DNA of 64,000 bases, taken from the NCBI GenBank assembly GCA_009692425.1, contig SHZF01000006.1, positions 5,704 to 69,703 on the forward strand, read 5' to 3'. A program made the translations under genes and the position numbers. Under the pieces are notes generated by a model, which was given only the letters and a program-made list of their open reading frames with translations, searched no databases and was not told the origin of the DNA. Source of the DNA: Myxococcales bacterium (GTDB lineage: Bacteria; Myxococcota_A; UBA9042). Shown here piece after piece: positions 1,359 through 64,000 of this stretch (position 1 is the stretch's first letter; every line of letters starts with the position of its first letter).

Positions 1359-2903
1359 ATGCAGTCCAGGATCCTGAGCGCCGCGGTCGTCGGTGTCGAT
1401 GCGCGGCTGGTCGAAGTGGAATGCGACGTCTCCGGCGCCGTGATGGCTTTCGATACCGTCGGGCTACCCGAACTGTCGGTGCGCGAGGCGCGCTACCGGG
1501 TGCGCTCGGCGATGCGGGCTTCGGGCCTGAAGTTCCCCGGCCGCAGCGTCCTGATCAACCTGGCGCCCGCCGACCTGCGCAAGGACGGGACCTGCTACGA
1601 CCTGCCGCTGGCGCTCGCCCTGCTGGCGGCCGATGGGACCCTGCCGCCGGGCGTGCTGGACGGCTTCGTGGTCGTCGGCGAGCTGTCGCTGATGGGCGGC
1701 GTGCGGCCCGCGGTCGGCGTCCTCGCGATGGCCCAGTTGGTGCGCGACCTCGGCTTGCGCGGCATCCTCTGCCCTGCGGACAACGTCGCCGAGGCCCGCG
1801 CAGTCCACGGCATCGAGGTGCGTGCGGCCCAGATGCTGGCCGGCGTCGTCGACTGCCTGCGCAGCGGTGCCGCATGGCCGGAGCCCGCGTGTATGCCGCG
1901 ACCTGTGGCACCGCGCTCCCACGACCTGTGCTGGTCCGACATCCGCGGTCACGCTGTCGCCAAACGTGCGCTTGAGGTGGCGGCGGCGGGCGGGCACAAC
2001 GCCGTGATGGTCGGCACGCCGGGCACCGGCAAGACGATGCTGGCCCGTCGCCTGCCGTCGATCCTGCCGCCGCTCGACGCCAACGAGGCCGTCGAGGTGA
2101 CGAAGGTGCACTCCGTGGCTGGCTTGCTCCACTCCGGCGCGGGCCTCCTGACCGAGCGGCCCTTCCGCGCGCCGCACCACACCATCAGTGCGGCTGCGCT
2201 CGTGGGCGGTGGGTCGATCCCCAAGCCGGGCGAGGTGTCGCTGGCCCACCGCGGTGTGTTGTTCCTCGATGAGTTGGCTGAGTACCCGCGCTACGTGCTG
2301 GAGACCCTGCGGCAGCCGCTCGAAGACGGCACGGTCACGGTGACGCGCGCCCGCCAAGTCGCCCGGTTTCCGTCGCAGGTCATGCTCGTCGCCGCCCTGA
2401 ACCCGTGCCCGTGCGGCCGCCAAGGCTCAGCTACCCATGCGTGCACGTGCTCGCCGGTCGCGCTCAATCGGTACCGCGGCCGGCTGTCGGGTCCCTTGCT
2501 CGACCGCATCGACCTGCAGGTGCGGGTACCGGCGCTCGAAGCGGGCGCGCTGCGCGGGGGCCCCGATGGCGATACGTCCGACACGGTCCGAGGTCGGGTG
2601 TGTGCCGCACGGCGTGTGCAGTACGACCGGTTCGGGCCCGGCGTGACGAACGCCACCGTGCCTATGCCACGCCTGCGCAACATGAGCCCGCTCGCGACGC
2701 CCGTCCACGACGTCCTGCTGCGCGCACTCGAAATGTTCGGCCTGTCGCCGCGTGCCCACGACCGCATCTGGCGCGTGGCGCGCACGATCGCGGACCTCGG
2801 CGGGGTGCATGCCGTCGAGATTGGCCACATTGCCGAAGCCTTGCAATACCGCTGCTTCGACGAACCCTGCGCGCCCTTGGCGACCCGCGCCGCAGCCGCA
2901 TAG
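1359..2903 (+). CDS. comM: ComM/YifB-family Mg-chelatase-like AAA+ ATPase (competence protein ComM homolog)
   Basis: Translation [25 protein letters not shown]..., Walker A GTPGTGKT, and the C-terminal Zn-ribbon-like CPCGRQ....CTCS of YifB/ComM. Start chosen at 1359 (RBS) rather than 1338. Confidence 0.85.
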
Positions 2904-2989
2904 CCACCCCTCGATACCCTGACCGGCCGCCGGGCGTTCTGGCGGACCGGATTTTTCAAGGGCGACATCTCCGTCGCCCCGGAGGCACC

Positions 2990-4009
2990 ATGGCAGACAA
3001 GACCAACGTTCCGCTCCTCGACGACCTCGTTCGCTCCATCGAGAAGGCATTTGGCAAGGGCATCGTGATGGCAGCGGACGGGCCCGCCGTCGATCAGGAC
3101 ATCGAGCCGCTTCCCACCGGTTCGTTCGCGCTGGACCGGGCCCTCGGCATCGGCGGCCTCCCGAAGGGGCGCATCATCGAGATCTTCGGGCCCGAGTCGT
3201 CGGGCAAGACCACGATGGCGCTCTCGGCATTGGCCCAGGCGCAACGCCAGGGCCTCGTGGCGGCCTTCATCGACGCGGAGCACGCGCTCGACCTGAAGTA
3301 CGCCCGCGACCTCGGATGCGACTGCAGCCGGCTGCTGTTGAGCCAGCCCGACTGCGGCGAGCAGGCCATGGATGTCGTCGAGGCGCTCGTGCGCTCTGGC
3401 GAGGTCGGCCTGATCGTGATCGACTCCGTGGCGGCGCTCACCCCCAAGGCGGAAATCGACGGCGAGATGGGCGACAACCACGTCGGCCTGCACGCCCGCC
3501 TGATGTCGCGGGCGATGCGCAAGCTGGCGGCGCTGGCGCACCAGACGGGCACGACGCTCATCTTCATCAACCAGATCCGCATGAAGATCGGCGTCACGAT
3601 GGGGAGCCCGGAGACGACGACCGGCGGCAACGCGTTGAAGTTCTACGCGTCGGTGCGGCTCGACGTGCGGCGTATCGGCTCGCTCAAGCGTGACGAGGCG
3701 ATCTACGGCAACCGGCTCAAGATCAAGGTGCAGAAGAACAAGGTCGCGCCGCCGTTCCGGCAGTGCGAGATCGACCTGCTGTTCGGCCAGGGCTTCTGCC
3801 GCGAGGCCGAGGTGTTTGACCTCGGCGTGCAGCAGGGCGTCATCCAGCGCTCGGGTGCCTTCTACCGCTGCGGCGACGAGATGGTCGGTCAGGGCCGCGA
3901 CCGCGCCGTGGCCGAACTGAAGGCGCGTGCCGAACTGTGCCGGCGCATCGAAGCCAAGCTCGCGGATGCCCCGGCCGACCTCGCCAGCGACCTCGACGAG
4001 GCCGCGTAG
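2990..4009 (+). CDS. recA: Recombinase RecA
   Basis: [27 protein letters not shown]...GPESSGKTT...[22 protein letters not shown]...[11 protein letters not shown]: a full RecA signature. GGAGG RBS at 2981-2985. Confidence 0.95.
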
Positions 4010-4057
4010 CCATCACCTGTCGGAGGCAGCCGGCACGGTGCCGGCGGTCTCGTTGCA

Positions 4058-4075
4058 GATGCACGCGCGTGCATC
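4058..4075. promoter_or_regulatory. 18-bp perfect palindrome GATGCACGCGCGTGCATC between recA and ssb (candidate operator site, or weak hairpin)
   Basis: Self-complementary sequence seen directly, 16 nt upstream of the ssb ATG. A second imperfect palindrome CCGGCACGGTGCCGG lies at 4030-4044. Confidence 0.3.
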
Positions 4076-4090
4076 CATTCGGAGGAAGTC

Positions 4091-4447
4091 ATGGATTTGA
4101 ACAAGGTACTGCTCATCGGCCGCCTCGGCGGCAAGCCCGAGATCAAGAAGTCCGCCGCTGGCGACCCCGTCGCCCGCATGCGGGTTGCCACCAGTTTCCA
4201 GCGCGAGAAGGACGGCGTGTGGGAGAAGGAGACGGAGTGGCACACGGTGGTCGCGTTCGGGCGCACCGCGGAGAAGTGCGGTGAGTTCCTCGACAAGGGG
4301 CGGCTCGTCTACGTCGAGGGCGCGCTGCGCTCGAACGAGTGGACGGACAAGGAAGGCAAGGCCCGCGTCGACCGCGAGGTACGGGCGCGCGACGTGTACT
4401 TCCTCGACAAGGCACCCGCGGCCCCCACCCAAGCGCTCGCCGTGTAG
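4091..4447 (+). CDS. ssb: Single-stranded DNA-binding protein with OB fold, lacking the acidic C-terminal tail (118 aa)
   Basis: MDLNKVLLIGRLGGKPEIKK....WHTVVAFGRTAE...LVYVEGALRSNEWTDKEGK is the SSB OB fold. It ends ...APAAPTQALAV with no D-D-D-I-P-F tail. GGAGGA RBS at 4081-4086. Confidence 0.9.
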   Translation: MDLNKVLLIGRLGGKPEIKKSAAGDPVARMRVATSFQREKDGVWEKETEWHTVVAFGRTAEKCGEFLDKGRLVYVEGALRSNEWTDKEGKARVDREVRARDVYFLDKAPAAPTQALAV

Positions 4448-4486: not shown

Positions 4487-4521
4487 GGGGCGGGTCCGGG
4501 CACCAGGCTCGGGCCCGCCCC
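4487..4521. terminator. GC-rich hairpin (12-bp stem GGGGCGGGTCCG / CGGGCCCGCCCC, one mismatch) between the convergent ssb and radical-SAM genes; candidate bidirectional terminator
   Basis: Inverted repeat seen in sequence, between the ssb stop at 4447 and the minus-strand stop at 4551. No T-tract. Confidence 0.4.
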
Positions 4522-4550: not shown

Positions 4551-5915
4551 TCAGGCTGCCGCAGTCGGCGTGGCCGGTGCCCTGGCGCTGGTTTCGAGCG
4601 CGGACCCAAACGCCGCACCGGGCAGCGGGCCCGCCTTGCCCATCTTCGTCCGCGCCGGGTTGAAGTAGCCGAACCGCAAATTCGGATGGCGGCGGCGCAA
4701 TTCATGGACCATCGCGAGCATTCCGATCGGCGCGGCGACCGCGTCGGGGCCGAGCACGCGCAGGTAGAGTTCCGGGTCGATGTTCAGGTTGCGGAGCTGC
4801 ACGAGATGGACCCCACCGCGATCGATGAACTGCGAGAGTGCGTCCACTTCCACTGGCGAGTCGGATACGCCCGGGAACATGAAGGCGTTCAGGCTCACGT
4901 ACTTGCCGCGGCTCGACATCTCCACCGCCGACTGCAGGACGTGGTCGAAGGTGTAGCCGCGCGGCTTGTAGTAGGCCGTGTACAACGCGGCCCGCCCGGA
5001 GTTCAGGCTGATGCGGATGCTGTCGAGTCCGGCGTCGGCCAGTCGCGCCACGACCTTGGGCAACGACGCGTTCGAATTCAGGTTGACCACGCCGTTCGCA
5101 GTGCGCCGTCGGATGCCGCGCACGGTCGCTTCGAGCACCTTCGGCTGCATGAGCGGTTCGCCCTCACAGCCCTGGCCAAAGCTGACGACACCGTTCGGCA
5201 CGCGTTCCAAGTGCTGCACAGCCAGTTCGATCAGGTCGTCGGAGCCCGCCGGCGTCGCGATGCGGTCGTGGTTGGCGGCGAAGCTGGAGCCGGTCTGATC
5301 CGAGATGCAGCCGACGCACGCCGCGTTGCAGGTCGATGCAGCCGGCATCGGCGCTTCCCAGCGGCCCAGGAAGAAGTTCTGCGCGGCCCGGCAGTGGTAG
5401 ACGAGCGCGCAGTGCTCGATGTGCGCGAGCGCCCGGTTCGCCGGCGACGCCTTGCGGATGCGCCGCACTCCGCGCTGCACCGCCGCGATGTCGAAGCGGT
5501 ACGGGTCCTGGCGCGGGTCCGCATCGACGCGCACGGCCGGCACGACGAAGCGGCCGTTCATCCAACCGATGGCCGTGTACGCGTACAGCGGAAGGTCCGG
5601 GGCGCCCGGCGCGGTCTCGAAGGCGGGGTGGAGCAACCGCAGATACGCCGGCGCAACGAAAGCCGCTGCCGCCTGCAGCGGACCCGTGTGTGCATCACCC
5701 TCGACTTCGACCAGTTCGTCGATGCCCGCGTCCACTGCCAGCGGACGGCGGCCCGGCAGCACGAAAACGTCGCTCCCCTTCGGCAACGCGATCATCTCGA
5801 CGGCCAGCGGCCGCCGCAGGCTGTCGCCGTCCCAGCAGACCAATGCAAGGTCGGGGTGGTCGAAGATGCGCCCGGCGGAATCGGCGACCACGGCACGCGG
5901 GAAAAGGTCAGGCAT
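4551..5915 (-). CDS. Radical SAM domain protein (CX3CX2C = CNAACVGC) with an ~190-aa N-terminal domain of unknown function
   Basis: Canonical radical-SAM Cys triad, followed by GQGCEGEPLM (a SAM-binding glycine-rich motif). Confidence 0.75.
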   Translation of the reverse strand: MPDLFPRAVVADSAGRIFDHPDLALVCWDGDSLRRPLAVEMIALPKGSDVFVLPGRRPLAVDAGIDELVEVEGDAHTGPLQAAAAFVAPAYLRLLHPAFETAPGAPDLPLYAYTAIGWMNGRFVVPAVRVDADPRQDPYRFDIAAVQRGVRRIRKASPANRALAHIEHCALVYHCRAAQNFFLGRWEAPMPAASTCNAACVGCISDQTGSSFAANHDRIATPAGSDDLIELAVQHLERVPNGVVSFGQGCEGEPLMQPKVLEATVRGIRRRTANGVVNLNSNASLPKVVARLADAGLDSIRISLNSGRAALYTAYYKPRGYTFDHVLQSAVEMSSRGKYVSLNAFMFPGVSDSPVEVDALSQFIDRGGVHLVQLRNLNIDPELYLRVLGPDAVAAPIGMLAMVHELRRRHPNLRFGYFNPARTKMGKAGPLPGAAFGSALETSARAPATPTAAA

Positions 5916-5924
5916 GGGAACTCG

Positions 5925-7085
5925 CTACAGCGTGACTTGGGCGTTGAGCAGCACGTTGAAGCTTGCGATTTCGCCCAAGTTGGCGCCACTGACGCTGGTC
6001 GAGGCGTCCTTCGCGGACTTCACGAACGGGATTTGCACGGCGGCCCCGATCTGCGCGACCTTGAGGTACGTGCGCAGCCCGAACGTGCCGAGCCACACCC
6101 CCTTGACCATGGGAGCGTTTTCCAGTTCGAACAGGCCATCCAACTCCGCCGCGATGCCGACGATGCCGAGGTCGGCCAGCAGACCTGCGCCCACGTTGGC
6201 GTACCGCATGCGCTTTGCGGCACCAAACAGCTTGTCATCGACGGCCTTCGCCATGGGACGCAGATCGACGTACTCGCCGCGCGCGGTCACCTTGACGAAC
6301 ATCAGGTCCACACCGACGACGGCATACGGCGCGTACGACAGGTAGCTGTGCAGGTAGCGCGGGGTCGCGAGCACGTTAGAAAGCGCGATCGTGTCGGCGT
6401 CGGCAGTGCCCGTGGGTGCGTACACGCTCACGCCGGTCGTCCACCCAAAGCCCAGGCTGCCCGCGCCGTAGGCGTCACCGGTGTGCAGGTCGAGTCCGAG
6501 GTTGCCGAGTTCGAACGAGTCGCCCTTGTCGTTGTGGAAACCGGCAATGGCGATCTGGGCCGTCGCTTCGAGCCAGCGCAGGTTCAGGCGGGCGTACGGC
6601 TCGACCGAAAACGTTGTCGTCTTGGCCGGTTTCGACGCGTTCTGGTAGACCTCGACCAGGGTCGCCATCGTCTTGAGCTTCGACGAGTCGATCGTGGCGA
6701 GGTAGGCCTTCTGCGCCGCGGTCGGCGTCTGACCGTGGGCCTTCATCTGGTCCTCCATGGCCTTCTTGAACTCCTCGGTCTTGCCCGCATCGGCAAACTC
6801 CTTCATCTGCTTGGCGTCCACGTACTTCAGGTACTCGACCATCTTCGCGGCCTCGGGATTCGACTTGGCCTGTTCGTCCACCGCCTTCTTCACCGCCGTC
6901 TGGATGACTGCCTCGACAGGAGCCACCTGGAAGTTGGCGCCCGCCGAAATGAACCGGTCCCTTGCGTCGTGTTTCACGGTGCGGCCGACGAACAGGTCGC
7001 CGTTGTTGAAGGGCCGCGCGTTGGCGACACCTGCGGCGCCGATCAGGCCGCACGCCACCATGACTGGCACTGTCCCCCGCTTCAT
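5925..7085 (-). CDS. Secreted protein of unknown function with signal peptide MKRGTVPVMVACGLIGAAGVANA. 386 aa; Gly/Ala/Val-rich C-terminal half, possibly a beta-barrel.
   Basis: Clear N-terminal signal peptide. No recognizable catalytic motifs. The stop lies 9 nt upstream of the radical-SAM start, so an operon is likely. Confidence 0.55.
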   Translation of the reverse strand: MKRGTVPVMVACGLIGAAGVANARPFNNGDLFVGRTVKHDARDRFISAGANFQVAPVEAVIQTAVKKAVDEQAKSNPEAAKMVEYLKYVDAKQMKEFADAGKTEEFKKAMEDQMKAHGQTPTAAQKAYLATIDSSKLKTMATLVEVYQNASKPAKTTTFSVEPYARLNLRWLEATAQIAIAGFHNDKGDSFELGNLGLDLHTGDAYGAGSLGFGWTTGVSVYAPTGTADADTIALSNVLATPRYLHSYLSYAPYAVVGVDLMFVKVTARGEYVDLRPMAKAVDDKLFGAAKRMRYANVGAGLLADLGIVGIAAELDGLFELENAPMVKGVWLGTFGLRTYLKVAQIGAAVQIPFVKSAKDASTSVSGANLGEIASFNVLLNAQVTL

Positions 7086-14872: not shown

Positions 14873-17599
14873 ATGCACGACGTCGGCACAGCGCTCCTTT
14901 ATGTGACGTTTGTCGCGATGCTCGGCACGACGCTGACTGCATTCGCGGGTGCGGCCCTGCGCTCGCCAGGCTGGCTGCAGGCGGCGCGCCACGGCCTCAT
15001 GGCGACGTGGCTGCTCATCCTCGCGATGTCGGCGTGCCTGGTCGTGGGCCTGGTGACGCACGATTTTCGCAACCAATACATCGCCGCCTACACCGACGTC
15101 GACATGCCGTTGCCGTACCTGCTCTCGGGATTCTGGGGCGGCGAGAAGGGCGCGCTGCTTTTCTGGGTCACGGCCCTGACGACGTTCGGCGTCTTTGCCA
15201 TCTTGCGCAACCGCAGCCAGACGCCCGTTTTTTTGGGCTGGGTCACGGGCTTCCTCGGGTCGGCGATCGCGTTCTTCGTGATGCTGATGGTGTTCGAGTC
15301 CAACCCGTTCGAGACGTTTGCCGCCGGGCTCGGTCCCGCCGACGGCAAGGGCATGAATCCGCTGCTGCAGAATCCGCTGATGGCCGTGCACCCGCCAAGC
15401 CTGCTGACGGGGTACATCGCGTTTACGTTGCCCTACGCCTTCGGCATGGCCGCGCTGGCGACGGGCCAACTCGACGCCCAGTGGCTGCGCGATACCCGCA
15501 AGTGGACGCTCGTGTCGTGGCTTTTCCTGTCTCTGGGCCTGATCCTCGGCGGCGCATGGGCCTACAACGAACTCGGCTGGGGCGGGTTCTGGATGTGGGA
15601 CCCGGTCGAGAACGCCGGCCTGATCCCATGGTTCACCGCCACCGCGTTCCTGCACTCGGTGATGATCCAGGAACGCCGCAACATGCTGAAGCGCTGGAAC
15701 GTGGTACTCGTGTGCCTGACCTTCCTGCTCACCGTGTTTGGCACGTTCTTGACGCGCAGCCAGTTGATCGATTCCGTGCACGCGTTTGCCGACTCGACGC
15801 TGGCGAGCTACTTCTTGTGGTACATGGCGGCGATTATCGTCGTGTCGACGGCCCTGATCGCGTGGCGCTGGGGTCAATTGCGCGCCGAGGCGTCGCTCGA
15901 CTCGCTGCTCAGCCGAGAAGCCTTCTTCGTGTTCAACAACGTGCTGCTTGTCGGGTGCGCTTTTGTGGTGCTGTGGGGCACCGTCTTCGGCCAGATCAGC
16001 GAGGCCAAGCCGGTGCAGGCGCTGCACAATGCCTTTGCCGACGCGCTGGCGACGATCGGCGTACACATCGAACCGCTGGCCGGCAAGGTCCAACTCGGCG
16101 AGCCGTGGTTCAATCGCGTGATGACGCCGCTCGGCCTTGGCCTCCTGTTGATGACCGGCGTCGGTCCGCTCATTGCGTGGCGGCGCGCAACCCGGCGCAA
16201 TTTCGAGCGCAACTTCGCCCGGCCGATCGTGTGGAGCGCGCTGGTGACGCTGTTCGTGTCCGTGGGCTGGCTGGCGCGCGATGTCGTCCAGACCCGCGAC
16301 GGTGGGCCGTGGGGCGCCGCCTGGACCCGCACGGTCGATGCACTCGATGGCTCGCACGCCTGGGGAATCGCCTGCATCGGGCTGTCGGCGTTCGTGATCG
16401 TGGCGATCGCCCGCGAGTTCCACGTTGCCGCCCGCGCCCGCCAGCGGGGCCACGGCGACAGCTACGGGCTCGCGCTCGTGTTGCTGACGCTCAAGAACAA
16501 GCGGCGCTACGGCGGCTACGTCGTCCACATCGGCGTGGTGTTCTGCTTCCTGGCGTTCGCGGGCAATGCATTCCGGACGTACCAGCCCGAGATCGCGCTG
16601 CATCCCGGTGAGTCCGTCGCAGTCGGTGGCTACGGTCTGACGTTTGCCGGTGGCGAAGACGTGTGGGAAGCCGACGGTGCCTACGTCTCGAGCCGCGCCC
16701 GCATTGTCGTGACGGCCCGCGACGGCACCGTTGCCCCGGAGTTGGTGGCCACGGTGCTGGCCACAGTGCGCCGCTTCGACGCGGCGGCGACGGCTGTCGC
16801 ACGTCCGGGAAGTGCGGCGCTCGCGATCGATTTCGCCGACGCCGCAGCCGGGCGGCGCTTTGCGGCAGCGTGGACCGTGCCGCGGTTGGGCCGCCTGGCG
16901 ACGCCCGCCCACGTCCCTGCCGCCGATGCGCGCGTGCTGGCGCTCGAATTGTCGTCGGCGATGATGGAAGTGGCCGCCGTCGCGCCGCAGGCCGTGATGA
17001 AGGCGTTTGCCGAGGTGCGCAGCGCCGTTGGCCAGTACCCGGTCCCAGTCGAAGTGCGCACGACACCGGGCCAGACGCGCTTCGAACTCGCATTCGGGGA
17101 TGCCGCCGCGCGCAGCCAGTTCGCCGCCGACTTGCGCCGAATCCCGTTGGCCGGCTTCGAATTCGTCGCAGTCGATGCCGACGCCAACCTTGCCGCTGGG
17201 GTGCGGGTTCAAGCCGTCCCGCTTGGTGCCGGCGCAGTCTTGGTGCCCGAGGTCCGCAACTACAAGAAACACCAGAGCCCCACCACCGAAGTCGCCATCC
17301 AGTCTGCGTTCGATCACGACCTGTACCTGGCGATGCGCCCGGCCCAGGCGGCGCGTTCGGTCAGCTTGCTCGCCGTGGTGTTCCCGTTCATCGGCCTGCT
17401 GTGGTTGGGCGCGATTACGCTGCTCGTGGGCGGGGCGATCTGCTTGCTGCCGGCCCAGCGGACGGCGGCGGCGACCGAGTCCGATCCTGAGTCCTCCCCA
17501 TTGACCGGCCACGGCGGACATTCCCAGCCACCGCCGGCTTCCGGCCTCGGCGACGGAATGCCTGCGCCGGCGGTTGCGCTCGCGGTGGAAGGGTCGTGA
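14873..17599 (+). CDS. ccmF: Cytochrome c-type biogenesis heme lyase CcmF with a ~200-aa insertion in the C-terminal periplasmic region
   Basis: WWD domain (WGGFWMWDPVENAGLIPW), conserved His-containing TM helices, the C-terminal PEVRNYKKHQSPTTEVAIQSAFDHDLYLAM block and a final TM helix. Start chosen at MHDVGTALLY (14873). The in-frame ATG at 14852 is also possible. Confidence 0.85.
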   Translation: MHDVGTALLYVTFVAMLGTTLTAFAGAALRSPGWLQAARHGLMATWLLILAMSACLVVGLVTHDFRNQYIAAYTDVDMPLPYLLSGFWGGEKGALLFWVTALTTFGVFAILRNRSQTPVFLGWVTGFLGSAIAFFVMLMVFESNPFETFAAGLGPADGKGMNPLLQNPLMAVHPPSLLTGYIAFTLPYAFGMAALATGQLDAQWLRDTRKWTLVSWLFLSLGLILGGAWAYNELGWGGFWMWDPVENAGLIPWFTATAFLHSVMIQERRNMLKRWNVVLVCLTFLLTVFGTFLTRSQLIDSVHAFADSTLASYFLWYMAAIIVVSTALIAWRWGQLRAEASLDSLLSREAFFVFNNVLLVGCAFVVLWGTVFGQISEAKPVQALHNAFADALATIGVHIEPLAGKVQLGEPWFNRVMTPLGLGLLLMTGVGPLIAWRRATRRNFERNFARPIVWSALVTLFVSVGWLARDVVQTRDGGPWGAAWTRTVDALDGSHAWGIACIGLSAFVIVAIAREFHVAARARQRGHGDSYGLALVLLTLKNKRRYGGYVVHIGVVFCFLAFAGNAFRTYQPEIALHPGESVAVGGYGLTFAGGEDVWEADGAYVSSRARIVVTARDGTVAPELVATVLATVRRFDAAATAVARPGSAALAIDFADAAAGRRFAAAWTVPRLGRLATPAHVPAADARVLALELSSAMMEVAAVAPQAVMKAFAEVRSAVGQYPVPVEVRTTPGQTRFELAFGDAAARSQFAADLRRIPLAGFEFVAVDADANLAAGVRVQAVPLGAGAVLVPEVRNYKKHQSPTTEVAIQSAFDHDLYLAMRPAQAARSVSLLAVVFPFIGLLWLGAITLLVGGAICLLPAQRTAAATESDPESSPLTGHGGHSQPPPASGLGDGMPAPAVALAVEGS

Positions 17600-18183
17600 G
17601 CGCGTTGGTGCTCGGCATCGACCCCGGCTCGCGCAAGATGGGATGGGGACTCGTCGCCGGCAGCGCCGAACGCCCGCGCCGCGTCGATGGCGGCACGCTG
17701 CGGCCGGACGTGCGCGCGGCCCTGCCAGACCGGCTCGGTTGGCTGCTGACGCAACTGCAGGCCTTGTACGCGGCCCATCCCGTAACCGCGCTGGCGGTCG
17801 AATCGGCGTTCGTGCGCGACAATGCCCGCACCGCCCTCGTGCTGGGTCAAGCCCGCGGCCTGCCGATCGCGCTCGCCGCCGCCCGCGGCCTGCCGGTGCA
17901 CGAGTACGCGCCGGCGCAGGTGAAGCGGCGCATCGTCGGGCAGGGCCGCGCCGACAAGCACCAGATGCGCGAAATGGTGAAAGTGCTGCTGAATCTGCCC
18001 AGTCCTCCACCCGAAGACGAAGCGGATGCGTTGGCAGTCGCGCTCGCCCACCTGCGTGCCGCCCACTGGGCCCAGGCCGTCGCGCCGGCCATCGGCATCC
18101 CGCGTGCGGCGGCACCGGCGCGGACTGCGGCCCAAGACGCGTGGCTGCAAGCGCTCGATGCCACGCGCGGGAGGCGGCCGTGA
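17596..18183 (+). CDS. ruvC: Holliday junction resolvase RuvC
   Basis: LVLGIDPGSRKMGWGLV...ESAFV...ADALAVALAHL. The GTG start overlaps the ccmF TGA (GTGA). Confidence 0.9.
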   Translation: MSALVLGIDPGSRKMGWGLVAGSAERPRRVDGGTLRPDVRAALPDRLGWLLTQLQALYAAHPVTALAVESAFVRDNARTALVLGQARGLPIALAAARGLPVHEYAPAQVKRRIVGQGRADKHQMREMVKVLLNLPSPPPEDEADALAVALAHLRAAHWAQAVAPAIGIPRAAAPARTAAQDAWLQALDATRGRRP

Positions 18184-18788
18184 TCGGGTTCCTGCGCGGC
18201 ACCTGCCAACACGTCGGAGACGACCACGTCGTACTCGATGTCGCGGGCGTCGGCTACGAAGTGTTCGTGACCGAGCGTTTGCGCGGCGCGGCGGCCCTGG
18301 GCGTCGCGCTGGAGGTGCGCGTGCACACCGAAGTGCGTGAAGACGCGATCATCCTGTTCGGGTTCGAGCACGCCGCCGAAAAGACGCTATTCCGGTTGCT
18401 GCTGTCGGTCAGCGGGGTCGGGCCGCGCGGCGCCTTGGCCCTGCTGGGCGCGCTGCCACCCGGAGAACTCGCCGTGGCCGTGCGCGACGGCAAGGTGGCG
18501 GCGCTGACGAAGGCGAAGGGCATCGGCAAGAAGACGGCGGAGACGATCATCATCAAGCTGCGCGACCGACTGCCCGCCGACCTGCTGTGGACGTCCGGGC
18601 CGACGCCGCCCGGTCTCACCTCTGTGCTCCCGCCCGGTACACGCGACGTGCTCAGCGCGCTCCAGAACCTCGGCTATCGGCCCGCGCTCGCCGAGCACGC
18701 GCTGGCCGAGGCGCACAAGGCGCATCCGGAGGCCGATTTCGACGGCCTGTTGCGGTCCGCGCTGGCAATGCTCCGGCGGCCCGGCTAA
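18180..18788 (+). CDS. ruvA: Holliday junction branch-migration protein RuvA
   Basis: [30 protein letters not shown]...[17 protein letters not shown]...[13 protein letters not shown]. The GTG start overlaps the ruvC TGA. Confidence 0.9.
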
Positions 18789-18975
18789 AGGCGCCATCGG
18801 AATTGGCCGGGTGTCCCGTGCGGTCCTTTGGGGCGCCATTTTCCTAGTTGGGGCGCCAAGCTCGCGACTTGCCCGACTCGACGGCGCCGGCAGAGGGATC
18901 GACTTGTTGGAGTCGGTATCCTACCTTCGGCCGCCGCCCCCGCTCACGCTACAGGCTGCCACCCGAGACCCGCCG

Positions 18976-20031
<1,056 letters not shown>

Positions 20032-35445: not shown

Positions 35446-36084
35446 ATGGCGCAGTTGTGCACATACTTGGCGCCGCGGAGCGCCGCGGGTTCCGGATCCG
35501 TCCAAACACTCTCCGATGTCGACCTTGTCGCGGTCTTGATCGGGCCGACGCCAGACGACCGGTGGCGGGCCTGCGCCCTGGTGGCCCGCCAGGCGAGCCT
35601 CGCCGCGCTCGGGGTGACCCTCCGCGCGCCGGGCCACGATCTCGATGGCGCGTCGCACAGGCGGTTGCTTGCCGCTGTCGAGTTGGGGTGCCGCGCGCTG
35701 GCCGACAAGTGCGATGCGGCGCAATTGCGGCGGGTCCAGGACCTCGTGGCGCGCTACCGGGACCTCGCCCTGTCCGACGCCGAACAACTCGTCGTCGTAT
35801 GCCTCGATGCAGGCCGACATCTGGTGGCTGAGTATCGATTTCACGGCGGACTCGACAGCGTCACGGCGCCGCTGCCCCTGCTGCTGCGCCGCGTGCTGGA
35901 GTCGGGCGCTCCCGGCTTTGCGCTGGTCCACAACCATCCGAGCGGCGACCCGCGGCCGAGCGCGGCCGACCGTGCGTTTACGGAGCGGGTCGCCGCGGCG
36001 GCGCGCCTGTGCGATCTGCGCCTTTTCGAGCACGTCGTGGTGGCTGCCCGTGGCTGGGCGCGGGTACCCGGCGGTACGTCGTGA
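35446..36084 (+). CDS. radC: RadC-family JAB/MPN domain protein
   Basis: N-terminal LSDVDLVAVLIG, plus the JAMM motif HNHPSGDPRPSAAD. Confidence 0.85.
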   Translation: MAQLCTYLAPRSAAGSGSVQTLSDVDLVAVLIGPTPDDRWRACALVARQASLAALGVTLRAPGHDLDGASHRRLLAAVELGCRALADKCDAAQLRRVQDLVARYRDLALSDAEQLVVVCLDAGRHLVAEYRFHGGLDSVTAPLPLLLRRVLESGAPGFALVHNHPSGDPRPSAADRAFTERVAAAARLCDLRLFEHVVVAARGWARVPGGTS

Positions 36085-57740: not shown

Positions 57741-60700
57741 CTACGCAGGCGCCGTTGGGCCGGGGCGCCGCACGATGCGGGCGGCCTGGATCACGGGTGC
57801 GGCGGCGACGGGTTCCGGGGCCAGTCGAGACCTGGCTGCGGTCGTGGTGGCGGCTGACTTTGCCTTTGGCGAGTTCTTGGCTGCAACAGTCTTCGCCGGC
57901 GCCGCCTGCTTGGCCGTGCGTTTGCCGGTCTGGGCCCCGGTCCGAGGACCCGTCGCAGCGCGCTTGGTCCCCCGCCGCGGCTTGGCTTTGGGTGGCTTGC
58001 CGAAATGACGCAGCCTGTCGAGCGCTCCTTCGAGCGTGAGATCGTCGGGCTGCGTGCCCCGCGCCAGCGACGCGTTCAGGGTGCCGTTCGTCACATACGG
58101 GCCAAAGCGTCCATCGAGCAGACGTACCTCGCCGCCCCCGTCCGGATCCTTGCCCAACGTGCGGCCGGCCTTCTGCGCTGCGGCCCCGTCGAGCAATGCC
58201 AGGGCGTGGGCCAGCGTCACGCCGTCGACCGCGGTGCCTTTGGGCAGCGTCTTGTTCGCGGCGCCATCCGTGACGTACGGGCCATAGCGACCGTTCCACA
58301 GTTCGATCGCCTTGTCCGCGTGGGTGCCGAGGGCGCGCAGCATCGCGCGTTGACCCGCCTTGGGTTGGCGTAGTGCCGCCAAGGCTTCCGTCAGCGTGAT
58401 CCGCGCGGCCAGCACGCCGACATCAAGGCTGCGCGTCTGGCCGTCACTTTCCACGAAATCGCCGAAGCGGCCCGTCTTGGCAACGACCGCCTTGCCCGTG
58501 CGCGGGTCGTCGCCGAGTTCGCGAGGCAGTGCCAACTGTGCCAGCGCCGTCTCGAGGTCGAGGGCCCCCGGTTCCATGCCTTTCGACAGGCTGACCCGTC
58601 GCGGCTCCTTGGCGCCGTCTTCGGTTTTCGCTGACCCGTTGGCCGGCCCGCCCAACTGTAGGTACCAGCCGAAGCGACCGTTGCGCAGGTAGACCGCTTC
58701 GCCCGTGGTCGGATCGGTTCCCAACGGGGCGTCGCCTTTCTGGCGTGCCTCGATCATCTCGACGGCGCGCGCCACCGTCAGTTCATCGGGCGCCTGCTCT
58801 TCGGGCACGCTGGCGGTGCGATCGCCGATCTTCACGAAGGCGCCAAACCGGCCAATCCGCACGACCACCGCCTCCCCGCTCGGCGCGCTTCCGATCGGCA
58901 CGGCACTTGCCTCAGCAGGGTCGATGCGATCGCGCACGGTCTCGAGCAACTTCGACAGACCCGGCACCGGTCCAGAATCGCCGACCTGGGCAAAGCCGTC
59001 CTCGTAGAACGCACGCAGGTATGCGCCGGCCTTGGCCTCCCCACGCGCGACCGCATCGAGTCGGCTCTCCATCTCGGCGGTGAAGCCGTAGTCCACGAGG
59101 TGGGGCATGTGCTTTTCGAGCATGGCGACCACCGCCATGCCGAGAAACGTCGGCACGAGCGCCTGGCCCTTGCGGAACGCGTACTCCTTGTCGAGCAGGT
59201 TCTGGAGGATGGCCGCATACGTGCTGGGGCGACCGATACCTTGCTCTTCCAATGACTTGACGAGTGATGCGTCGGTGAGCCGGGCCGGCGGCCGGGTCTC
59301 GTGACCATCGACGCGCACGGGCGGCTGGCCCCAGATCAAGGCATCGCCGGCCTCCAGCGCCGGCAGGGGCCGATCGCGGGCGTCGAGCGCGGCCTCCGGA
59401 TCATCGGAACCCTCGACGTACGCGAGTAGGAATCCAGGGTTGCGCGTCACGCGGCCGGTCGCGCGAAACACGGCATCGTCGACCGCGATGTCGAGCGTCG
59501 TCTGCTCCACCTGCGCATCGACCATCTGGCTGGCGACCGTGCGCTTCCAGATCAGGTCGTACAGGCGCGCCGCGTCGCGCCCCATCGCGCTCGCCACGGC
59601 GTCGACCGGCTGGAAATGGGTACCTGCCGGCCGGATTGCCTCGTGGGCCTCCTGGGCGTTGGCCGACTTCGTCTGGTAGCGCCGCGGCTTCGGCGGCAGG
59701 TTGGCTGGCCCGTACTGGTCGGAGATCAGCGTGCGCGCGGCCTGCAGCGCCTGCTCCGAGAGCGTAGTCGAATCGGTACGCATGTAGGTGATGAAGCCCG
59801 ACTCGTAGAGTTGCTGCGCCACCCGCATCGCGTCGCGTGCCGACATGCGCAGCTTGCGGTTGGCCTCCTGTTGCAGCGTCGAGGTCGTGAACGGCGGGTA
59901 GGGCCGCAGCGTCTGCGGGCGCACGTCCTTGCTCTTGACGCGGGCGGGCCGGCCGGCCAGACGCTCGGCCAACGCGCGGGCGCCCGCCTCGTCGAGTTGG
60001 AGGACGCGCGGGTCCTTCAATTGTCCGGTGACGTCGTCGAAATCGCGGCCATCGGCAAGCTTGCGATCGCCGACACGCAGCAGCCCGGCGTCGAATGCCG
60101 TGGCGTCGCGTTGCGGCGCAAAGCGGCCGGTCACATCCCACCAGGCCGCCGTGACGAACGCGATGCGCTGCCGTTCGCGCTCGACCAACATGCGCAGCGC
60201 CACCGACTGCACCCGGCCCGCAGACAACGACGGCTTGATCTTGCCCCACAACAGGCGGCTCACGTCCCACCCGTACAGGCGGTCGACGATGCGGCGGGCC
60301 CGCTGGGCCACGACGAGGTGCTCGTCGAGGGGGCGTGGGTGGGCGATCGCGTGATCGATCGCTTCCTTGGTGATTTCGTGGAACACCAATCGCGACGTCG
60401 GAACCTTTCGTTTCGGATCGAGGACTTCGCGCAGGTGCCAACTGATCGCCTCGCCTTCGCGGTCATCGTCCGTCGCGAGGTAGAGTTGACCGGCCGTCTT
60501 GAGCGCCGCCTTCAGCGTGTCGATCTGGCGCTTCTTGTCGGGCGGAACGAAGTAGATTTCCTCCAGCGGCTCAAAATGGTTGTCGAGGTTGACCCCATAG
60601 TTGACCCAGCGCGCGCTGCGGCGCTCGTCGCCCTCGGCCAGGTCCGCCTTGCGCTCGACGAGGTCGCGCACGTGGCCGACGCTCGCCTCGACGATGTACG

Positions 60701-60803
60701 GCTTGCCGAGGAACCGGCCCAGGGTGCGCGCCTTCGTCGGAGACTCGACGATGACGAGCACGGGCCCGAGGGGCGCTGCGCCGTGCGAAGTCTTGCTTGC
60801 CAT
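57741..60803 (-). CDS. topA: DNA topoisomerase I with C-terminal Zn-ribbon-like / RFG(P/A)Y repeats and a Lys/Ala-rich basic tail
   Basis: TOPRIM VIVESPTKARTL, active-site Tyr region GFITYMRTDS, repeated GRFGAFVK / GRFGWYLQ / GRFGDFV / GRYGPYVT / GRFGPYVT motifs, then the tail KPPKAKPRRGTKRAATGPRTGAQTGKRTAKQAAPAKTVAAK... Start at MASKTSHG. The upstream ORF extension is rejected. Confidence 0.9.
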   Translation of the reverse strand: MASKTSHGAAPLGPVLVIVESPTKARTLGRFLGKPYIVEASVGHVRDLVERKADLAEGDERRSARWVNYGVNLDNHFEPLEEIYFVPPDKKRQIDTLKAALKTAGQLYLATDDDREGEAISWHLREVLDPKRKVPTSRLVFHEITKEAIDHAIAHPRPLDEHLVVAQRARRIVDRLYGWDVSRLLWGKIKPSLSAGRVQSVALRMLVERERQRIAFVTAAWWDVTGRFAPQRDATAFDAGLLRVGDRKLADGRDFDDVTGQLKDPRVLQLDEAGARALAERLAGRPARVKSKDVRPQTLRPYPPFTTSTLQQEANRKLRMSARDAMRVAQQLYESGFITYMRTDSTTLSEQALQAARTLISDQYGPANLPPKPRRYQTKSANAQEAHEAIRPAGTHFQPVDAVASAMGRDAARLYDLIWKRTVASQMVDAQVEQTTLDIAVDDAVFRATGRVTRNPGFLLAYVEGSDDPEAALDARDRPLPALEAGDALIWGQPPVRVDGHETRPPARLTDASLVKSLEEQGIGRPSTYAAILQNLLDKEYAFRKGQALVPTFLGMAVVAMLEKHMPHLVDYGFTAEMESRLDAVARGEAKAGAYLRAFYEDGFAQVGDSGPVPGLSKLLETVRDRIDPAEASAVPIGSAPSGEAVVVRIGRFGAFVKIGDRTASVPEEQAPDELTVARAVEMIEARQKGDAPLGTDPTTGEAVYLRNGRFGWYLQLGGPANGSAKTEDGAKEPRRVSLSKGMEPGALDLETALAQLALPRELGDDPRTGKAVVAKTGRFGDFVESDGQTRSLDVGVLAARITLTEALAALRQPKAGQRAMLRALGTHADKAIELWNGRYGPYVTDGAANKTLPKGTAVDGVTLAHALALLDGAAAQKAGRTLGKDPDGGGEVRLLDGRFGPYVTNGTLNASLARGTQPDDLTLEGALDRLRHFGKPPKAKPRRGTKRAATGPRTGAQTGKRTAKQAAPAKTVAAKNSPKAKSAATTTAARSRLAPEPVAAAPVIQAARIVRRPGPTAPA

Positions 60804-60921
60804 GGTTGCCCTTGCCTTGCCGCGCAGTGCGGCCAGCCGATCCCGCTCGCTATGACTCTCGAAGCCCCGCGACAACGCGCTGTGCGGGCGCCGTTGGGCT
60901 CTGCTCTGTGTCGGCCACGGC

Positions 60922-61902
60922 TCAGCGCCGGAACGCTCCACCGGGCAAGCGCTGGATGCGCCCCGCCAAGCATGCCGCCAGCAGCGTCGCCGCCGTGGCG
61001 CTGCGGTCCAGCCCGGTGGCTGCCGCCAAGGCCTCGACCGACGCCCCCGCCGCGCCGGCTTCGGCCAGCGCCATCTCGAGGCGCGCGCGCTCCAGAGCCG
61101 ACCAGCCGGCGACGTCTGGCAGGGCTTGCGGCGGGACCGCAGGGGGCGCGTAGCATGGCGGGGCGGTTGGCGGCTCGTCAATCGGCAATCGCGGCGGGCG
61201 CCCGACAGCAGGGCCTTCGCGCGGTGGCTCCGGATCGCGTCGCAGCCAGTCAGCGCAACGTCCGGCCGCCAGTCCTGCGACGAGTTGGCGCGCATCATCC
61301 GGTGTTGCAAGTGCCCGGGCTCCGGATGCCAGCAACCTGTTCGTGCCCGCGCTGTTCTCCGTGCCCGGGGTCCACGGGGTCGCCAGAACGGGTCGCTGCA
61401 AGCGCCAGGCGTGGCGGCAGGCATGCAGCGAGCCGCTGCGGACCTCGGCGCACACGGCGACCACCGCATCGACCAGGCGCGCGACCAGCAGGTTGCGGAT
61501 CAGGAAGCGTGCCGGTGGCGCCGCGGCGCCCGGCGGCTGGCACGACAGTACAGCGCCGAGCCGGGCGATGGCCTCGAACAACTGGGCATTCTCGCGCGGA
61601 AACGGCACGTCGATGCCACCCGGCAACACCGCACACGGCGAGCCACCCGCCTCGAGCGCCCCTTGCAAGGCGGCCGTATCGACGCCGACCGCGCCGCCGC
61701 TCCACACGTCTGCCCCTGCCGTGGTGAGCCATGTGCCGATCGCGCGCGCCAGATCGTTCTGATCGCGTGTCGCCGCCCGTGCCCCGATCACGGCGACCCG
61801 CACCCGCCCGGCGGCGGGCAGCGAACCTGCCACCCACAGCGTGGCGTGGCCGGACGGTCGGCCGCACGCGTCTCCCGCCACGGCCTCGATCGACATCGCC
61901 AT
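60922..61902 (-). CDS. dprA: DNA processing protein DprA/Smf
   Basis: Rossmann-like VAVIGARAATRDQNDLARAIGTWLTTAGADVWSGGAVGVDTAALQGALEAGG...AVLP.GID; conserved dprA-topA adjacency. Start at MAMSIEAV. Confidence 0.78.
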   Translation of the reverse strand: MAMSIEAVAGDACGRPSGHATLWVAGSLPAAGRVRVAVIGARAATRDQNDLARAIGTWLTTAGADVWSGGAVGVDTAALQGALEAGGSPCAVLPGGIDVPFPRENAQLFEAIARLGAVLSCQPPGAAAPPARFLIRNLLVARLVDAVVAVCAEVRSGSLHACRHAWRLQRPVLATPWTPGTENSAGTNRLLASGARALATPDDARQLVAGLAAGRCADWLRRDPEPPREGPAVGRPPRLPIDEPPTAPPCYAPPAVPPQALPDVAGWSALERARLEMALAEAGAAGASVEALAAATGLDRSATAATLLAACLAGRIQRLPGGAFRR

Positions 61903-62061
61903 GAATCCTCCCTGCTTGGTGGCCTGCCGCCCGCCATGGTGGGCCGAGCGCGCGAAAAGCCCGCCCACAAACAGGTTCGCTCCGGGCGGCCACGTGACGC
62001 GGGTACACTCCGCCAGGGTGGGGTCAGTCCGCCCCAAGGTCCGATTCGCCTGGCGGCGGCT

Positions 62062-63423
62062 TCAGTGGCTGCGCTGCAGGCGGGCAGCGTAGAAAGCGTC
62101 CATGCCCGCCAGCAAGGGGTGTGTGCGGAGATCGCCCGCGGCGTCGAGCAGGGGGCGCACCCACGTCGCGCCGCCCGGGTCGCGGACGAAACCGGGGTGG
62201 GCTGCCAGGAAGCGTCCGACGACGAGTGGCCCCTCTTCTTCGGCAAACGAGCACACGGCGTACACGAGGTGGCCCCCGGGACGCACCAGGTCGGAGGCCG
62301 CCGCGAGCATCCGTGCTTGCAGGGCGTGGTGGCGCGGCAGGTCCGCAGCGCGACGCCGGTGGCGGATTTCGGGGCGGCGCCGCAGCGTGCCCAGCCCAGA
62401 GCACGGCGCGTCGACCAGCACCGCGTCCCAAGCCTCCCGGTCGAGGCCGAGATCGGTCGAGGCGTCCCCGGCGATCGTCGCGTCGAGCGGGTGGCCGGCC
62501 TGGCGGGCCAGCGCGGCGGCATCGGCCAGCTTGGGTCCATCGAGGTCGATCGCCGTCACGCGGGCCCCGGCTGCCGCGAGCGCCAGGGCCTTCACGCCCG
62601 CTCCGGCCGCCACATCGGCGGTGCGAGCACCGGGTGCCGGAGCCAGCCACCGCACGACGGCAGCGCTCGCGGCATCCTGCGCCAGCACCGCCCGGCGCGC
62701 GAACGCCGACGTCGCGAACACCCCGCCGCCATCGGCGCAGCGCACGCCGGGTACCGCCACTCCGTCGAGTTCCGCCACGGCGACGCCTGCCGCGGCCAGT
62801 TCCGCCCACACGAGCTCCGCGTCGCCTGCAGGGACATGCAGGTGCAGTGGCGCCGGCTGATCAAATGCGGCGTGGAGCGCATCGGCATCGAGTCCACAGA
62901 TGGCAGCCAACCGGCGCGAGCGCAGCGCGATCCAGTCGGGGAGCGAAGTTGGGGACCCTGCTTGCGGCAACGTGGCACCGGGCTCCGGCCGCCGCCGCGC
63001 GAGGCCGCGCAGCACCCCATGCACGAAGCCGACCGCGCGCCCCGCGACGAGACCCTTGGCGGCCTCGACCGTCGCATCGACCGCGGCGAAGGCCGGCACG
63101 CGCGGCAGGTACGCGAGTTGGCACGCGCCGACGCGCAACGCGATCAGCACCTCCGTGTCGAGGCCACAGAGCCCGTGGGCGCAAGCGTGTGCGAGCCAGC
63201 GGTCGAGCACGCGCTGGTGCCGCAGGGTCGCGTAGACGAGTTCCGTCACCAGCCCGCGGTCTGGCCCGGCCAACTCCGGCGGAGTGCCCAGCGCCTCGCG
63301 GACGGCGATCTGGCTGCCTGCCGTGCCGTCTTCGACCGCAAGCAGAGCGACGATGGCGCGGCGCCGCACGGACACGCCAGGCGGCAGGCTGTGTTCAGGC
63401 GTCGGGTTGGGCGACAGCGGCAT
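62062..63423 (-). CDS. rsmB: 16S rRNA (cytosine-C5)-methyltransferase RsmB/Sun family (NusB-like N-terminal domain plus NOL1/NOP2/Sun methyltransferase)
   Basis: SAM motifs VLVDAPCSGLGTLRRRPE, AVCSFAEEEG, and the catalytic PC/C pair. Start at MPLSPNPT. The upstream extension is rejected. Confidence 0.82.
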   Translation of the reverse strand: MPLSPNPTPEHSLPPGVSVRRRAIVALLAVEDGTAGSQIAVREALGTPPELAGPDRGLVTELVYATLRHQRVLDRWLAHACAHGLCGLDTEVLIALRVGACQLAYLPRVPAFAAVDATVEAAKGLVAGRAVGFVHGVLRGLARRRPEPGATLPQAGSPTSLPDWIALRSRRLAAICGLDADALHAAFDQPAPLHLHVPAGDAELVWAELAAAGVAVAELDGVAVPGVRCADGGGVFATSAFARRAVLAQDAASAAVVRWLAPAPGARTADVAAGAGVKALALAAAGARVTAIDLDGPKLADAAALARQAGHPLDATIAGDASTDLGLDREAWDAVLVDAPCSGLGTLRRRPEIRHRRRAADLPRHHALQARMLAAASDLVRPGGHLVYAVCSFAEEEGPLVVGRFLAAHPGFVRDPGGATWVRPLLDAAGDLRTHPLLAGMDAFYAARLQRSH

Positions 63424-63505
63424 GCGTGGTAGGTTCAGCGTCCTGCCAGCGGGTCCGGCGCGGTCGGCACTTTCCGCTCCCAGCGCGCCGCCCGTCAAGT
63501 TGCCC

Positions 63506-64000
63506 ATGACCCTGCCCGCCCGCCGATCGTGGAGAACCCTGCTGCCGCTCATCGGCACGGTCGTGCTCGTCGGCTGGTTTGTCCATTCGATGGACCGCGC
63601 GGGCTTCGTCCATGCCCTGCAGCTCTGCGACGTGCCGATGCTGGTCGGTGGTCTGGCCGTCGCGGGGCTCATCGCGTGGCTCTATGACAGCTGGACGCTG
63701 ACCTGGCTCGTGCATGCGACGCTGGGGCACCGCGGCCGCCCCGAGCCGGTCGGCTTGCGCGAACTTGCGCCGGTCAAGGCCGCCTCCTACGTGCTCAACA
63801 TCGCGAACTACCACGCCGCGACGTTGGGCATTGCCTGGGTGATCGCGCGCCGCAAGCAGGTGCCGTTCCTCGAAGGGGCCGGCGCGGTGGCTGCGCTGTC
63901 GTGGATCGACCTGGTGGCGGTGACGACCATGGCGACGATCGGCCTGCAGATCGCCCCGGATGTCGTCGGCGGGGCGCCCGCACTGCAGGGGTGGTTGCAA
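63506..64000 (+). CDS. Integral membrane protein, 5' partial at the window end (UPF0104 / lysylphosphatidylglycerol-synthase-TM-region-like flippase family?)
   Basis: MTLPARRSWRTLLPLIGTVVLVGWFV... with successive TM helices. The ORF runs off the window, so it is absent from the ORF track. Confidence 0.4.
   Translation, partial: MTLPARRSWRTLLPLIGTVVLVGWFVHSMDRAGFVHALQLCDVPMLVGGLAVAGLIAWLYDSWTLTWLVHATLGHRGRPEPVGLRELAPVKAASYVLNIANYHAATLGIAWVIARRKQVPFLEGAGAVAALSWIDLVAVTTMATIGLQIAPDVVGGAPALQGWLQ

Follow-up and report, generated by a model that had tools for sequence, protein, structure and literature searches.

Does a gene for an SSB (a protein that binds single-stranded DNA) that lacks the usual interaction tail, lying directly behind recA and comM, belong to a gene set dedicated to DNA uptake, or can such a trio be accounted for in another way? 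The question is raised by a 64-kb window (the whole stretch of DNA that was analysed, 64,000 nucleotides in length) from a metagenome-assembled genome (MAG) with the NCBI label 'Myxococcales bacterium', in which the G+C content is ∼69% throughout. At positions 1359–4447, comM, recA and ssb follow one another head to tail on the plus strand, as had been proposed in an earlier interpretation made from the letters of the DNA (hereafter the sequence-only reading), and each of the three genes is supported by profile matches.

1359–2903, plus strand: comM, encoding a YifB-family Mg-chelatase-like AAA+ ATPase of 514 amino acids (TIGR00368 and Pfam ChlI, Mg_chelatase and Mg_chelatase_C)
2990–4009, plus strand: recA, encoding a protein of 339 amino acids with canonical motifs, a member of a fast-evolving clade (TIGR02012, RecA and RecA_C)
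4091–4447, plus strand: ssb, encoding a protein of 118 amino acids with an OB fold and a 13-residue non-acidic tail, …KAPAAPTQALAV (PF00436 and TIGR00621)

The answer that is favoured here, with somewhat better than even confidence, is that the locus combines an ancestral comM–recA pair of the Myxococcota with a clade-specific accessory SSB that is devoid of the interaction hub and most likely protects single-stranded DNA (ssDNA) for RecA. In evolutionary terms, a short SSB paralogue would have entered the locus just behind recA in a single clade, uncultured and for the most part from freshwater, and would then have been retained.

The product of the third gene is a bacterial SSB: PF00436 covers residues 3–105 (101.7 bits), and the score with TIGR00621, 113.8 bits, exceeds the cut-off of 54. 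Its C-terminus, ...LDKAPAAPTQALAV (ending PAAPTQALAV), contains no Asp or Glu within the last ten residues, and the D-D-D-[ILV]-P-F tip of canonical SsbA-type proteins is absent. A frameshift masking a normal tail was considered and rejected, as neither of the two other frames past the stop codon encodes anything acidic or PF-terminated, and the stop codon is separated from a convergent radical-SAM gene by only 103 nt, which contain a strong hairpin. Among the open reading frames (ORFs) of the 64-kb window there is none with a DD[ILV]PF-type tip. The claim of the sequence-only reading that the SSB lacks an acidic tail is thus upheld, and it extends to all 27 related clusters and to every syntenic locus described below.

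The ssb gene is considered to be functional because its dN/dS values lie between 0.04 and 0.48 for close pairs. A decaying pseudogene was rejected on these values, all below 0.5, and on the presence of 23 invariant columns in the OB-fold core of the alignment of 25 short-family sequences (A1). The ratios, with those of recA (0.03–0.2), indicate purifying selection on both genes of the window, dS being close to saturation for the more distant pairs compared. Residues W50, H51, F56 and W84 are conserved in the short SSB family, and a cysteine within the OB fold (Cys63, in the motif AEKCGEF) is invariant in 25 of 25 aligned sequences and specific to this family. The Trp–His pair and the aromatic residues, which are among the invariant columns, are those used by E. 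coli SSB for tetramer formation and DNA binding.

A search of 5.8 billion proteins yielded about 27 related SSB clusters with lengths of 113–152 amino acids and 54–67% identity to the window SSB. The acidic tip is missing in all of them, the final ten residues containing 0–2 acidic residues. Their C-termini vary among close relatives (-LAV, -TLA, -SAA, -LALA and -KRAA), with a subset ending in -VPF, -APF or -PLF, in which the hydrophobic end of a canonical tip is kept and the acidic part is gone. At about 54% identity or less to the window SSB the proteins are ordinary, with DDDIPF-type ends in all of those checked. Indeed, the canonical SSB loci that were checked, including the Myxococcota MAGs L080 and L086 and a Bradymonadales MAG, display DD[ILV]PF-type tips and no comM–recA–ssb neighbourhood.

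The linkage of the tail-less ssb with comM–recA is strict. All 20 short-SSB loci that could be read (L001–L018 and L096–L097), which include 12 GTDB species representatives, display comM, recA and ssb followed by a convergent radical-SAM gene; these loci consist of six contigs reached via P0020 and P0006, twelve species-representative MAGs from a genome scan restricted to the best 80 SSB loci, in which no genome was represented twice, and the closest relative (L096/L097). The twelve MAGs are labelled Myxococcales, Myxococcota, 'Deltaproteobacteria' and, in one case, 'Enterobacteriaceae', and several of them originate from lakes. Identities to the window across the syntenic loci are 60–71% for ComM, 56–67% for SSB and 63–75% for the radical-SAM protein. 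The contig titled 'uncultured Enterobacteriaceae bacterium' (L011; CAZPHC010000006.1) is syntenic all the same, with 64% identity for ComM, 60% for SSB and 64% for the radical-SAM protein, and its taxonomic label is probably wrong.

The genes on the far side of ssb that share this synteny are the following.

4551–5915, minus strand: radical-SAM gene, a convergent neighbour syntenic with the module
5925–7085, minus strand: gene for a protein of 386 amino acids with no family match, a convergent neighbour syntenic with the module

The radical-SAM gene is present wherever the flank reaches and the 386-residue protein is encoded in most such loci, the link of both to the module being one of synteny only. 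The N-terminal ∼190 residues of the radical-SAM protein have no family match.

Where the short SSB came from can be approached through its closest relatives of known structure or class. The PDB matches of the window SSB (best E = 4.5e-25) are 5ODN with 91 bits, E. coli SSB with ∼80 bits and B. subtilis SsbB (3VDY) with 42 bits, and the models for SsbB of Firmicutes give 58.6 bits against a cut-off of 169 (NF005579, streptococcal) and 43.6 against 189 (NF005242, Bacillus). Because the protein is nearer to canonical Gram-negative-type SSBs and scores far below the SsbB cut-offs, the comparison indicates that its tail was lost independently of that of Firmicutes SsbB. The term 'SsbB-like' used in the sequence-only reading is therefore apt as a functional analogy, for a tail-less protein encoded behind recA and comM, and on these scores it does not stand as an assignment to the SsbB family. 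The notion that the loss of the tail is the hallmark of SsbB needs a similar qualification: the B. subtilis protein, which protects incoming ssDNA, is tail-less, but the pneumococcal SsbB keeps its acidic tail (PMC3384303). The short family is absent from IMG/VR (best match 52% identical) and from PLSDB (best match 55% identical over 74%), the best match in each being a canonical SSB, and PADLOC returned no more than sub-threshold AAA-type hits for the window. Since the viral and plasmid collections hold no members and PADLOC no hit, the module is a chromosomal, vertically inherited feature of one clade; an origin in a defence system or a mobile element was rejected on the same results.

The two genes in front of ssb bear on a different explanation, namely that the whole trio is a dedicated and duplicated competence set, in which expression of the RecA paralogue, of ComM and of the SsbB analogue would be confined to natural transformation, with the housekeeping recA and ssb located elsewhere in the genome. 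In all six canonical Myxococcota recA lineages that were looked up, recA lies immediately 3′ of comM and in the same orientation (L095; L098, the complete Anaeromyxobacter oryzae chromosome AP025591.1; L099; L100–104; L106–107; L108). The stop codon of comM and the start codon of recA overlap by 4 nt in three lineages, and in a fourth (L108) the genes overlap via a frameshifted comM. A Poly_export/SLBB gene is found upstream of the pair in six of the six lineages, and in four of these cinA follows downstream after a few genes; recA is followed by ssb in none. The same definition is satisfied by the window pair, with a spacer of 86 nt, and by the pairs of all 20 short-SSB loci. Beyond the clade of the module RecA, the nearest RecAs are those of the P0090 group, with named relatives in Myxococcales MAGs and in Anaeromyxobacter that are 73–79% identical to P0090.

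As it is displayed by six of six lineages, including a genus reported to have a single recA (Anaeromyxobacter strains are said to have one, the other sequenced myxobacteria two; PMC7029660), the comM–recA arrangement is identified by this comparison as the ancestral and ordinary context of recA in the Myxococcota, of which the window pair would most simply be the positional equivalent. Being ordinary for the phylum, the arrangement is therefore no evidence of a duplicated competence set in the window. A published description of phylum-wide comM–recA coupling was not found in a literature search. In the A. oryzae chromosome, a stand-alone ORF of 69 amino acids with a RecA_C Pfam match was observed ∼2 kb downstream of recA (L098:11045–11254).

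The RecA of the window is itself a regular member of its family, scoring 471 bits with TIGR02012 (cut-off 325) and 54 bits with RecA_C and displaying a canonical Walker A motif (GPESSGKTT), an intact L1 and a canonical L2. The clade to which it belongs is less regular. Intact module-clade RecAs are 54–58% identical to E. coli RecA, as compared with 61–67% for canonical Myxococcota RecAs and 60–73% for RecAs from many other bacteria, and in a simple neighbour-joining tree the syntenic RecAs and their relatives form a single long-branched clade. Otherwise full-length members have independently acquired deletions in the L2 loop (P0079 and P0080) or insertions in L1/L2 (P0086 and P0088), which suggests repeated remodelling of the DNA-binding surface of RecA in this clade. 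In three species-level MAGs, only a RecA-like core of 265–317 amino acids is encoded between comM and the tail-less ssb (L011:8845–9798, L013:8923–9792 and L017:9070–9867), in which the Walker A and L2 motifs are altered and RecA_C is missing; the TIGR02012 scores of two of these copies, 218 bits for L013 and 121 bits for L017, fall below the cut-off. The ComM and SSB encoded beside the truncated RecAs are conserved as normal.

ComM itself has not followed RecA. The window protein scores 515 bits with TIGR00368 (cut-off 362) and has the three-domain architecture of an N-terminal ChlI domain, an AAA+ Mg_chelatase domain and Mg_chelatase_C, each Pfam match with E ≤ 1e-24. Identities to an outgroup ComM are 44–47% in the module clade and 45–49% in the canonical Myxococcota lineages; since the linked ComM is equally far from the outgroup in both groups, the acceleration is specific to RecA. 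Taken as a whole, these comparisons indicate that the evolution of the linked RecA is accelerated and sometimes degenerative, whereas that of ComM is normal. A truncated RecA cannot be the sole recombinase of a free-living bacterium, and the three genomes concerned should therefore hold another recA.

The favoured explanation, in which an accessory SSB was added to the ancestral pair, can be put in mechanistic terms. With its aromatic ssDNA-binding residues and the Trp–His residues of the tetramer interface, the SSB would coat ssDNA as an ordinary tetramer, while the missing D-D-D-I-P-F tip and the variable C-terminus would prevent it from serving as a hub for RecO, PriA, exonucleases or the replisome. 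Because the hub function would be lost, the protein most likely shields ssDNA passively for recombination that depends on RecA, and is presumably made together with RecA and with the branch-migration helicase ComM, and with RecA being loaded by DprA, which is encoded elsewhere. The ssDNA to be protected is most likely that which enters in transformation: this would parallel B. subtilis SsbB, and no role of ComM other than transformation is established. Recombinational repair has to be taken seriously as another possible source of the substrate. A canonical tailed SSB would be expected elsewhere in the genome, as would another RecA, if not in every lineage then in those whose copy is degenerate.

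The spacers between the genes are relevant to whether the three proteins are made together. They measure 86 nt between comM and recA and 81 nt between recA and ssb, with ribosome-binding sites before recA (GGAGG) and before ssb (GGAGGA), and contain or are followed by the elements below.

2938–2979, plus strand: two hairpins in the comM–recA spacer (hairpin search)
4023–4075, plus strand: a hairpin and a palindrome in the recA–ssb spacer (hairpin search)
4487–4521, no strand assigned: GC-rich hairpin (arms of 15 nt) in the interval where ssb and the radical-SAM gene converge

In the first spacer, a weak terminator-like hairpin (2938–2951) with the T-run TTTTTC precedes a second hairpin with a 7-bp stem (GGGCGAC/GTCGCCC, 2960–2979), which lies just before the ribosome-binding site of recA. 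The second spacer comprises a hairpin with 14-nt arms (4023–4051) and, directly upstream of the ribosome-binding site of ssb, a perfect 18-bp palindrome (GATGCACGC/GCGTGCATC, 4058–4075), and the two could represent an operator or an intercistronic RNA structure. The spacers of the relatives (37–227 nt) also carry hairpins, and no shared sequence motif was found in the spacers of 15 loci. The hairpin behind ssb is probably a bidirectional terminator. Upstream of comM, recA and ssb, a search for LexA boxes produced only chance-level hits to the E. coli motif with two mismatches; the consensus sequences used (E. coli, Myxococcus, Geobacter, Bdellovibrio and Gram-positive) may not be that of the module clade. 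No Rfam families or tRNAs were found in scans of the window. Co-transcription of comM–recA–ssb is plausible.

The remainder of the window was surveyed by Pfam scans of all 44 called genes and of two ORFs in the single large gap. It is a core-genome region, with ruvCAB, folE, fbp, moaC, genes for aspartokinase and methylmalonyl-CoA mutases, cdaA, folP, ftsH, rplS–trmD–rimM and gpsA, as well as genes for a sigma-54 activator and a sigma-70 factor. The genes with a possible bearing on recombination or uptake are as follows.

17596–20031, plus strand: ruvC–ruvA–ruvB cluster, 13 kb from the module
35446–36084: radC, among housekeeping genes
60922–62037, minus strand: dprA (Pfam DNA_processg_A), 56 kb from the module

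DprA and RadC had both been named in the sequence-only reading and both are present, the former with corrected coordinates (60922–62037 instead of 60922–61902). The DNA_processg_A domain of DprA scores 134.7 bits; the NCBIfam dprA model gives 132.6 bits, under its equivalog cut-off of 191, and the match to the C-terminal DprA_WH is weak (20.5 versus 22.9 bits). Its gene lies between topA (57741–60875) and rsmB (62062–63672), all three on the minus strand, and we infer that it acts in the same pathway as the module. The third gene put forward, a ComEA-like ORF, did not materialize, as there is no HhH/ComEA Pfam match in the called genes or the gap ORFs; RuvA, the only window protein with HhH motifs, may be what had been taken for it. 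The idea of a dedicated uptake and recombination set within the 64 kb is consequently not supported, since what is found are widely conserved genes scattered over 56 kb, with no cluster and no ComEA. The accompanying remark that Myxococcales are not classically regarded as naturally competent is outdated in view of the natural transformation described for Myxococcus xanthus (Wang et al., 2011, as cited in PMC11610982).

Several points weigh against an accessory SSB acting with ComM and RecA on transforming DNA. The hairpins and the weak terminator-like site in the 81–86-nt spacers may mean that the three genes are separately controlled. The 64-kb window displays no comEC, comEA or pilus genes. 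ComM is near-ubiquitous among Gram-negative bacteria (PMC6158740), including organisms never shown to be transformable, and its presence consequently tells little about competence; a branch-migration helicase activity needed for transformation is established only for the V. cholerae, A. baylyi and H. pylori homologues (PMC6158740, PMC12012524). Those family members that end in -PF or -LF might still dock on some partners. Finally, the E. coli RecA reference behind the RecA identities was keyed in by hand, although the 60–73% that it gives for ordinary RecAs is as expected. The module does not show these organisms to be competent and is to be viewed as a comparative-genomics lead from uncultured organisms.

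For the alternative of a wholly duplicated competence set, the RecA data are an argument, as a long-branch RecA that is truncated and degenerate in three species is hard to square with a sole housekeeping RecA. The report that two recA genes are present in every sequenced myxobacterium, with Anaeromyxobacter as the exception (PMC7029660), points in the same direction, and so does the absence of a LexA-box-like motif upstream of the three genes, which has likewise been reported for M. xanthus recA1. The comM–recA order, however, is ancestral for canonical RecA, Anaeromyxobacter included; ComM lacks the rate acceleration of a duplicated, specialized copy; the RecA of the window shows canonical motifs throughout and evolves under purifying selection; and dprA and radC reside in housekeeping contexts, with ComEA not found in the window. 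That no second copy was found is a weak point among these, since the candidates for a second recA or ssb that were looked up (P0134, P0032, P0191, P0201 and P0186) all came from assemblies of other organisms and none from module genomes. Overall, a duplicated set of this kind is considered unlikely.

About as doubtful is the proposal that the tail-less SSB assists, as an accessory factor, in recombinational repair, fork rescue or chromosome handling during differentiation, comparable to Streptomyces SsbB in sporulation, and has no role in DNA uptake. It is in keeping with recA as the only fixed partner, with the occurrence of ruvCAB within the same 64 kb and with the lack of visible uptake genes nearby, and there is precedent for atypical or tail-less SSB paralogues that act outside of competence (S. 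coelicolor SsbB; PMC3616714). Yet ComM is a fixed partner too, and it has been described as transformation-specific, as recruited by the winged-helix domain of DprA in Gram-negative species, and as dispensable in V. cholerae for the repair of damage by methyl methanesulfonate or mitomycin C (PMC6158740, PMC12012524). The failure to detect a LexA-type box is a further argument against a repair function, tempered by the consensus used, which may not be that of this clade.

A bolder version of events, which we hold to be possible but improbable, is that this freshwater clade, with no shared origin with the Firmicutes, has evolved a dedicated SsbB-type tail-less SSB within the ancestral comM–recA operon as a self-contained transformation–recombination cassette, in which RecA, freed from housekeeping and evolving fast, had its DNA-binding loops remodelled in some lineages or was cut back to a core without its C-terminal part in others. 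If true, RecA would have given rise to a novel accessory activity that operates beside ComM and the SSB. Very hard to sustain, finally, is the idea that the module SSB is the sole replicative SSB, with partners that co-evolved with a new non-acidic C-terminus: neither the 64-kb window nor the flanks (±10 kb) of the 20 related loci contain another ssb, and a C-terminal -PF or -LF is kept in some members, but the C-terminus differs among close relatives (LAV, TLA, VPF, SAA, LALA, KRAA and others), which is the opposite of a conserved hub-docking motif, the linker is only ∼10–45 residues long, canonical tailed SSBs occur in other Myxococcota MAGs, and an absence from the window says little when 64 kb make up no more than about 1% of the genome of a myxobacterium.

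What is new at this locus is a clade-specific tail-less SSB of independent origin and, beside a ComM evolving at a normal rate, a linked RecA that is fast-evolving and degenerate in three species. The adjacency of comM and recA, often with translational coupling, provides genomic evidence for a tight functional link between ComM and RecA in a phylum in which ComM is unstudied, and offers a handle on the role of ComM in bacteria that do not count among the model transformers. Up to now, accessory SSBs without a tail have been characterized mainly in Firmicutes and Actinobacteria, and an independent, recA-linked origin supports the hub-less SSB as a recurrent way of protecting recombination substrates. 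In addition, the loci form a natural series, from canonical through loop-remodelled to truncated RecA with ComM and SSB constant, on the repurposing or loss of a duplicated or redundant RecA.

Among the known systems, B. subtilis SsbB (113 amino acids, PDB entry 3VDY) is, like the window SSB, a short OB-fold SSB without an acidic tail. To our knowledge its gene does not lie behind recA, unlike the window ssb. The two proteins also belong to different subfamilies, the match between them reaching 42 bits versus 80–91 bits for canonical Gram-negative-type SSBs. SsbB of B. subtilis works with RecA and DprA on ssDNA and not in replication, and is a paralogue that exists beside the full-length SsbA (PMC3384303). 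S. coelicolor SsbB and S. aureus SsbB/SsbC are lineage-specific second SSBs as well, in which the interaction tail is altered or absent and the role is specialized and non-replicative (PMC3616714, PMC9084298, PMC5945547). These atypical paralogues differ from the window SSB in that they come from other phyla and other neighbourhoods, and none is reported as fixed downstream of comM–recA. The truncated SSB-like proteins of cyanobacteria are another example of atypical SSBs.

For RecA, the nearest parallel is offered by RecA1 and RecA2 of M. xanthus, two diverged RecAs with divided labour, a situation that is common in myxobacteria; recA1 has no LexA box and is weakly expressed, and its product is recombination-proficient (PMC7029660). 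The fast-evolving module RecA, with no LexA box, could correspond to one of these copies. The M. xanthus RecAs are, however, 59–62% identical to E. coli RecA, against 54–57% for the window clade, and, unlike the window recA, their genes each have their own promoter, with no operon and no linked ssb mentioned (PMC7029660). In the ComM–DprA–RecA transformation pathway of Gram-negative bacteria (V. cholerae, A. baylyi and H. pylori), the genes lie apart from one another and a dedicated tail-less SSB is not known. The Myxococcota depart from this pattern in that comM and recA are adjacent, and translationally coupled in many cases, and in the module clade an SSB has been added to the pair.

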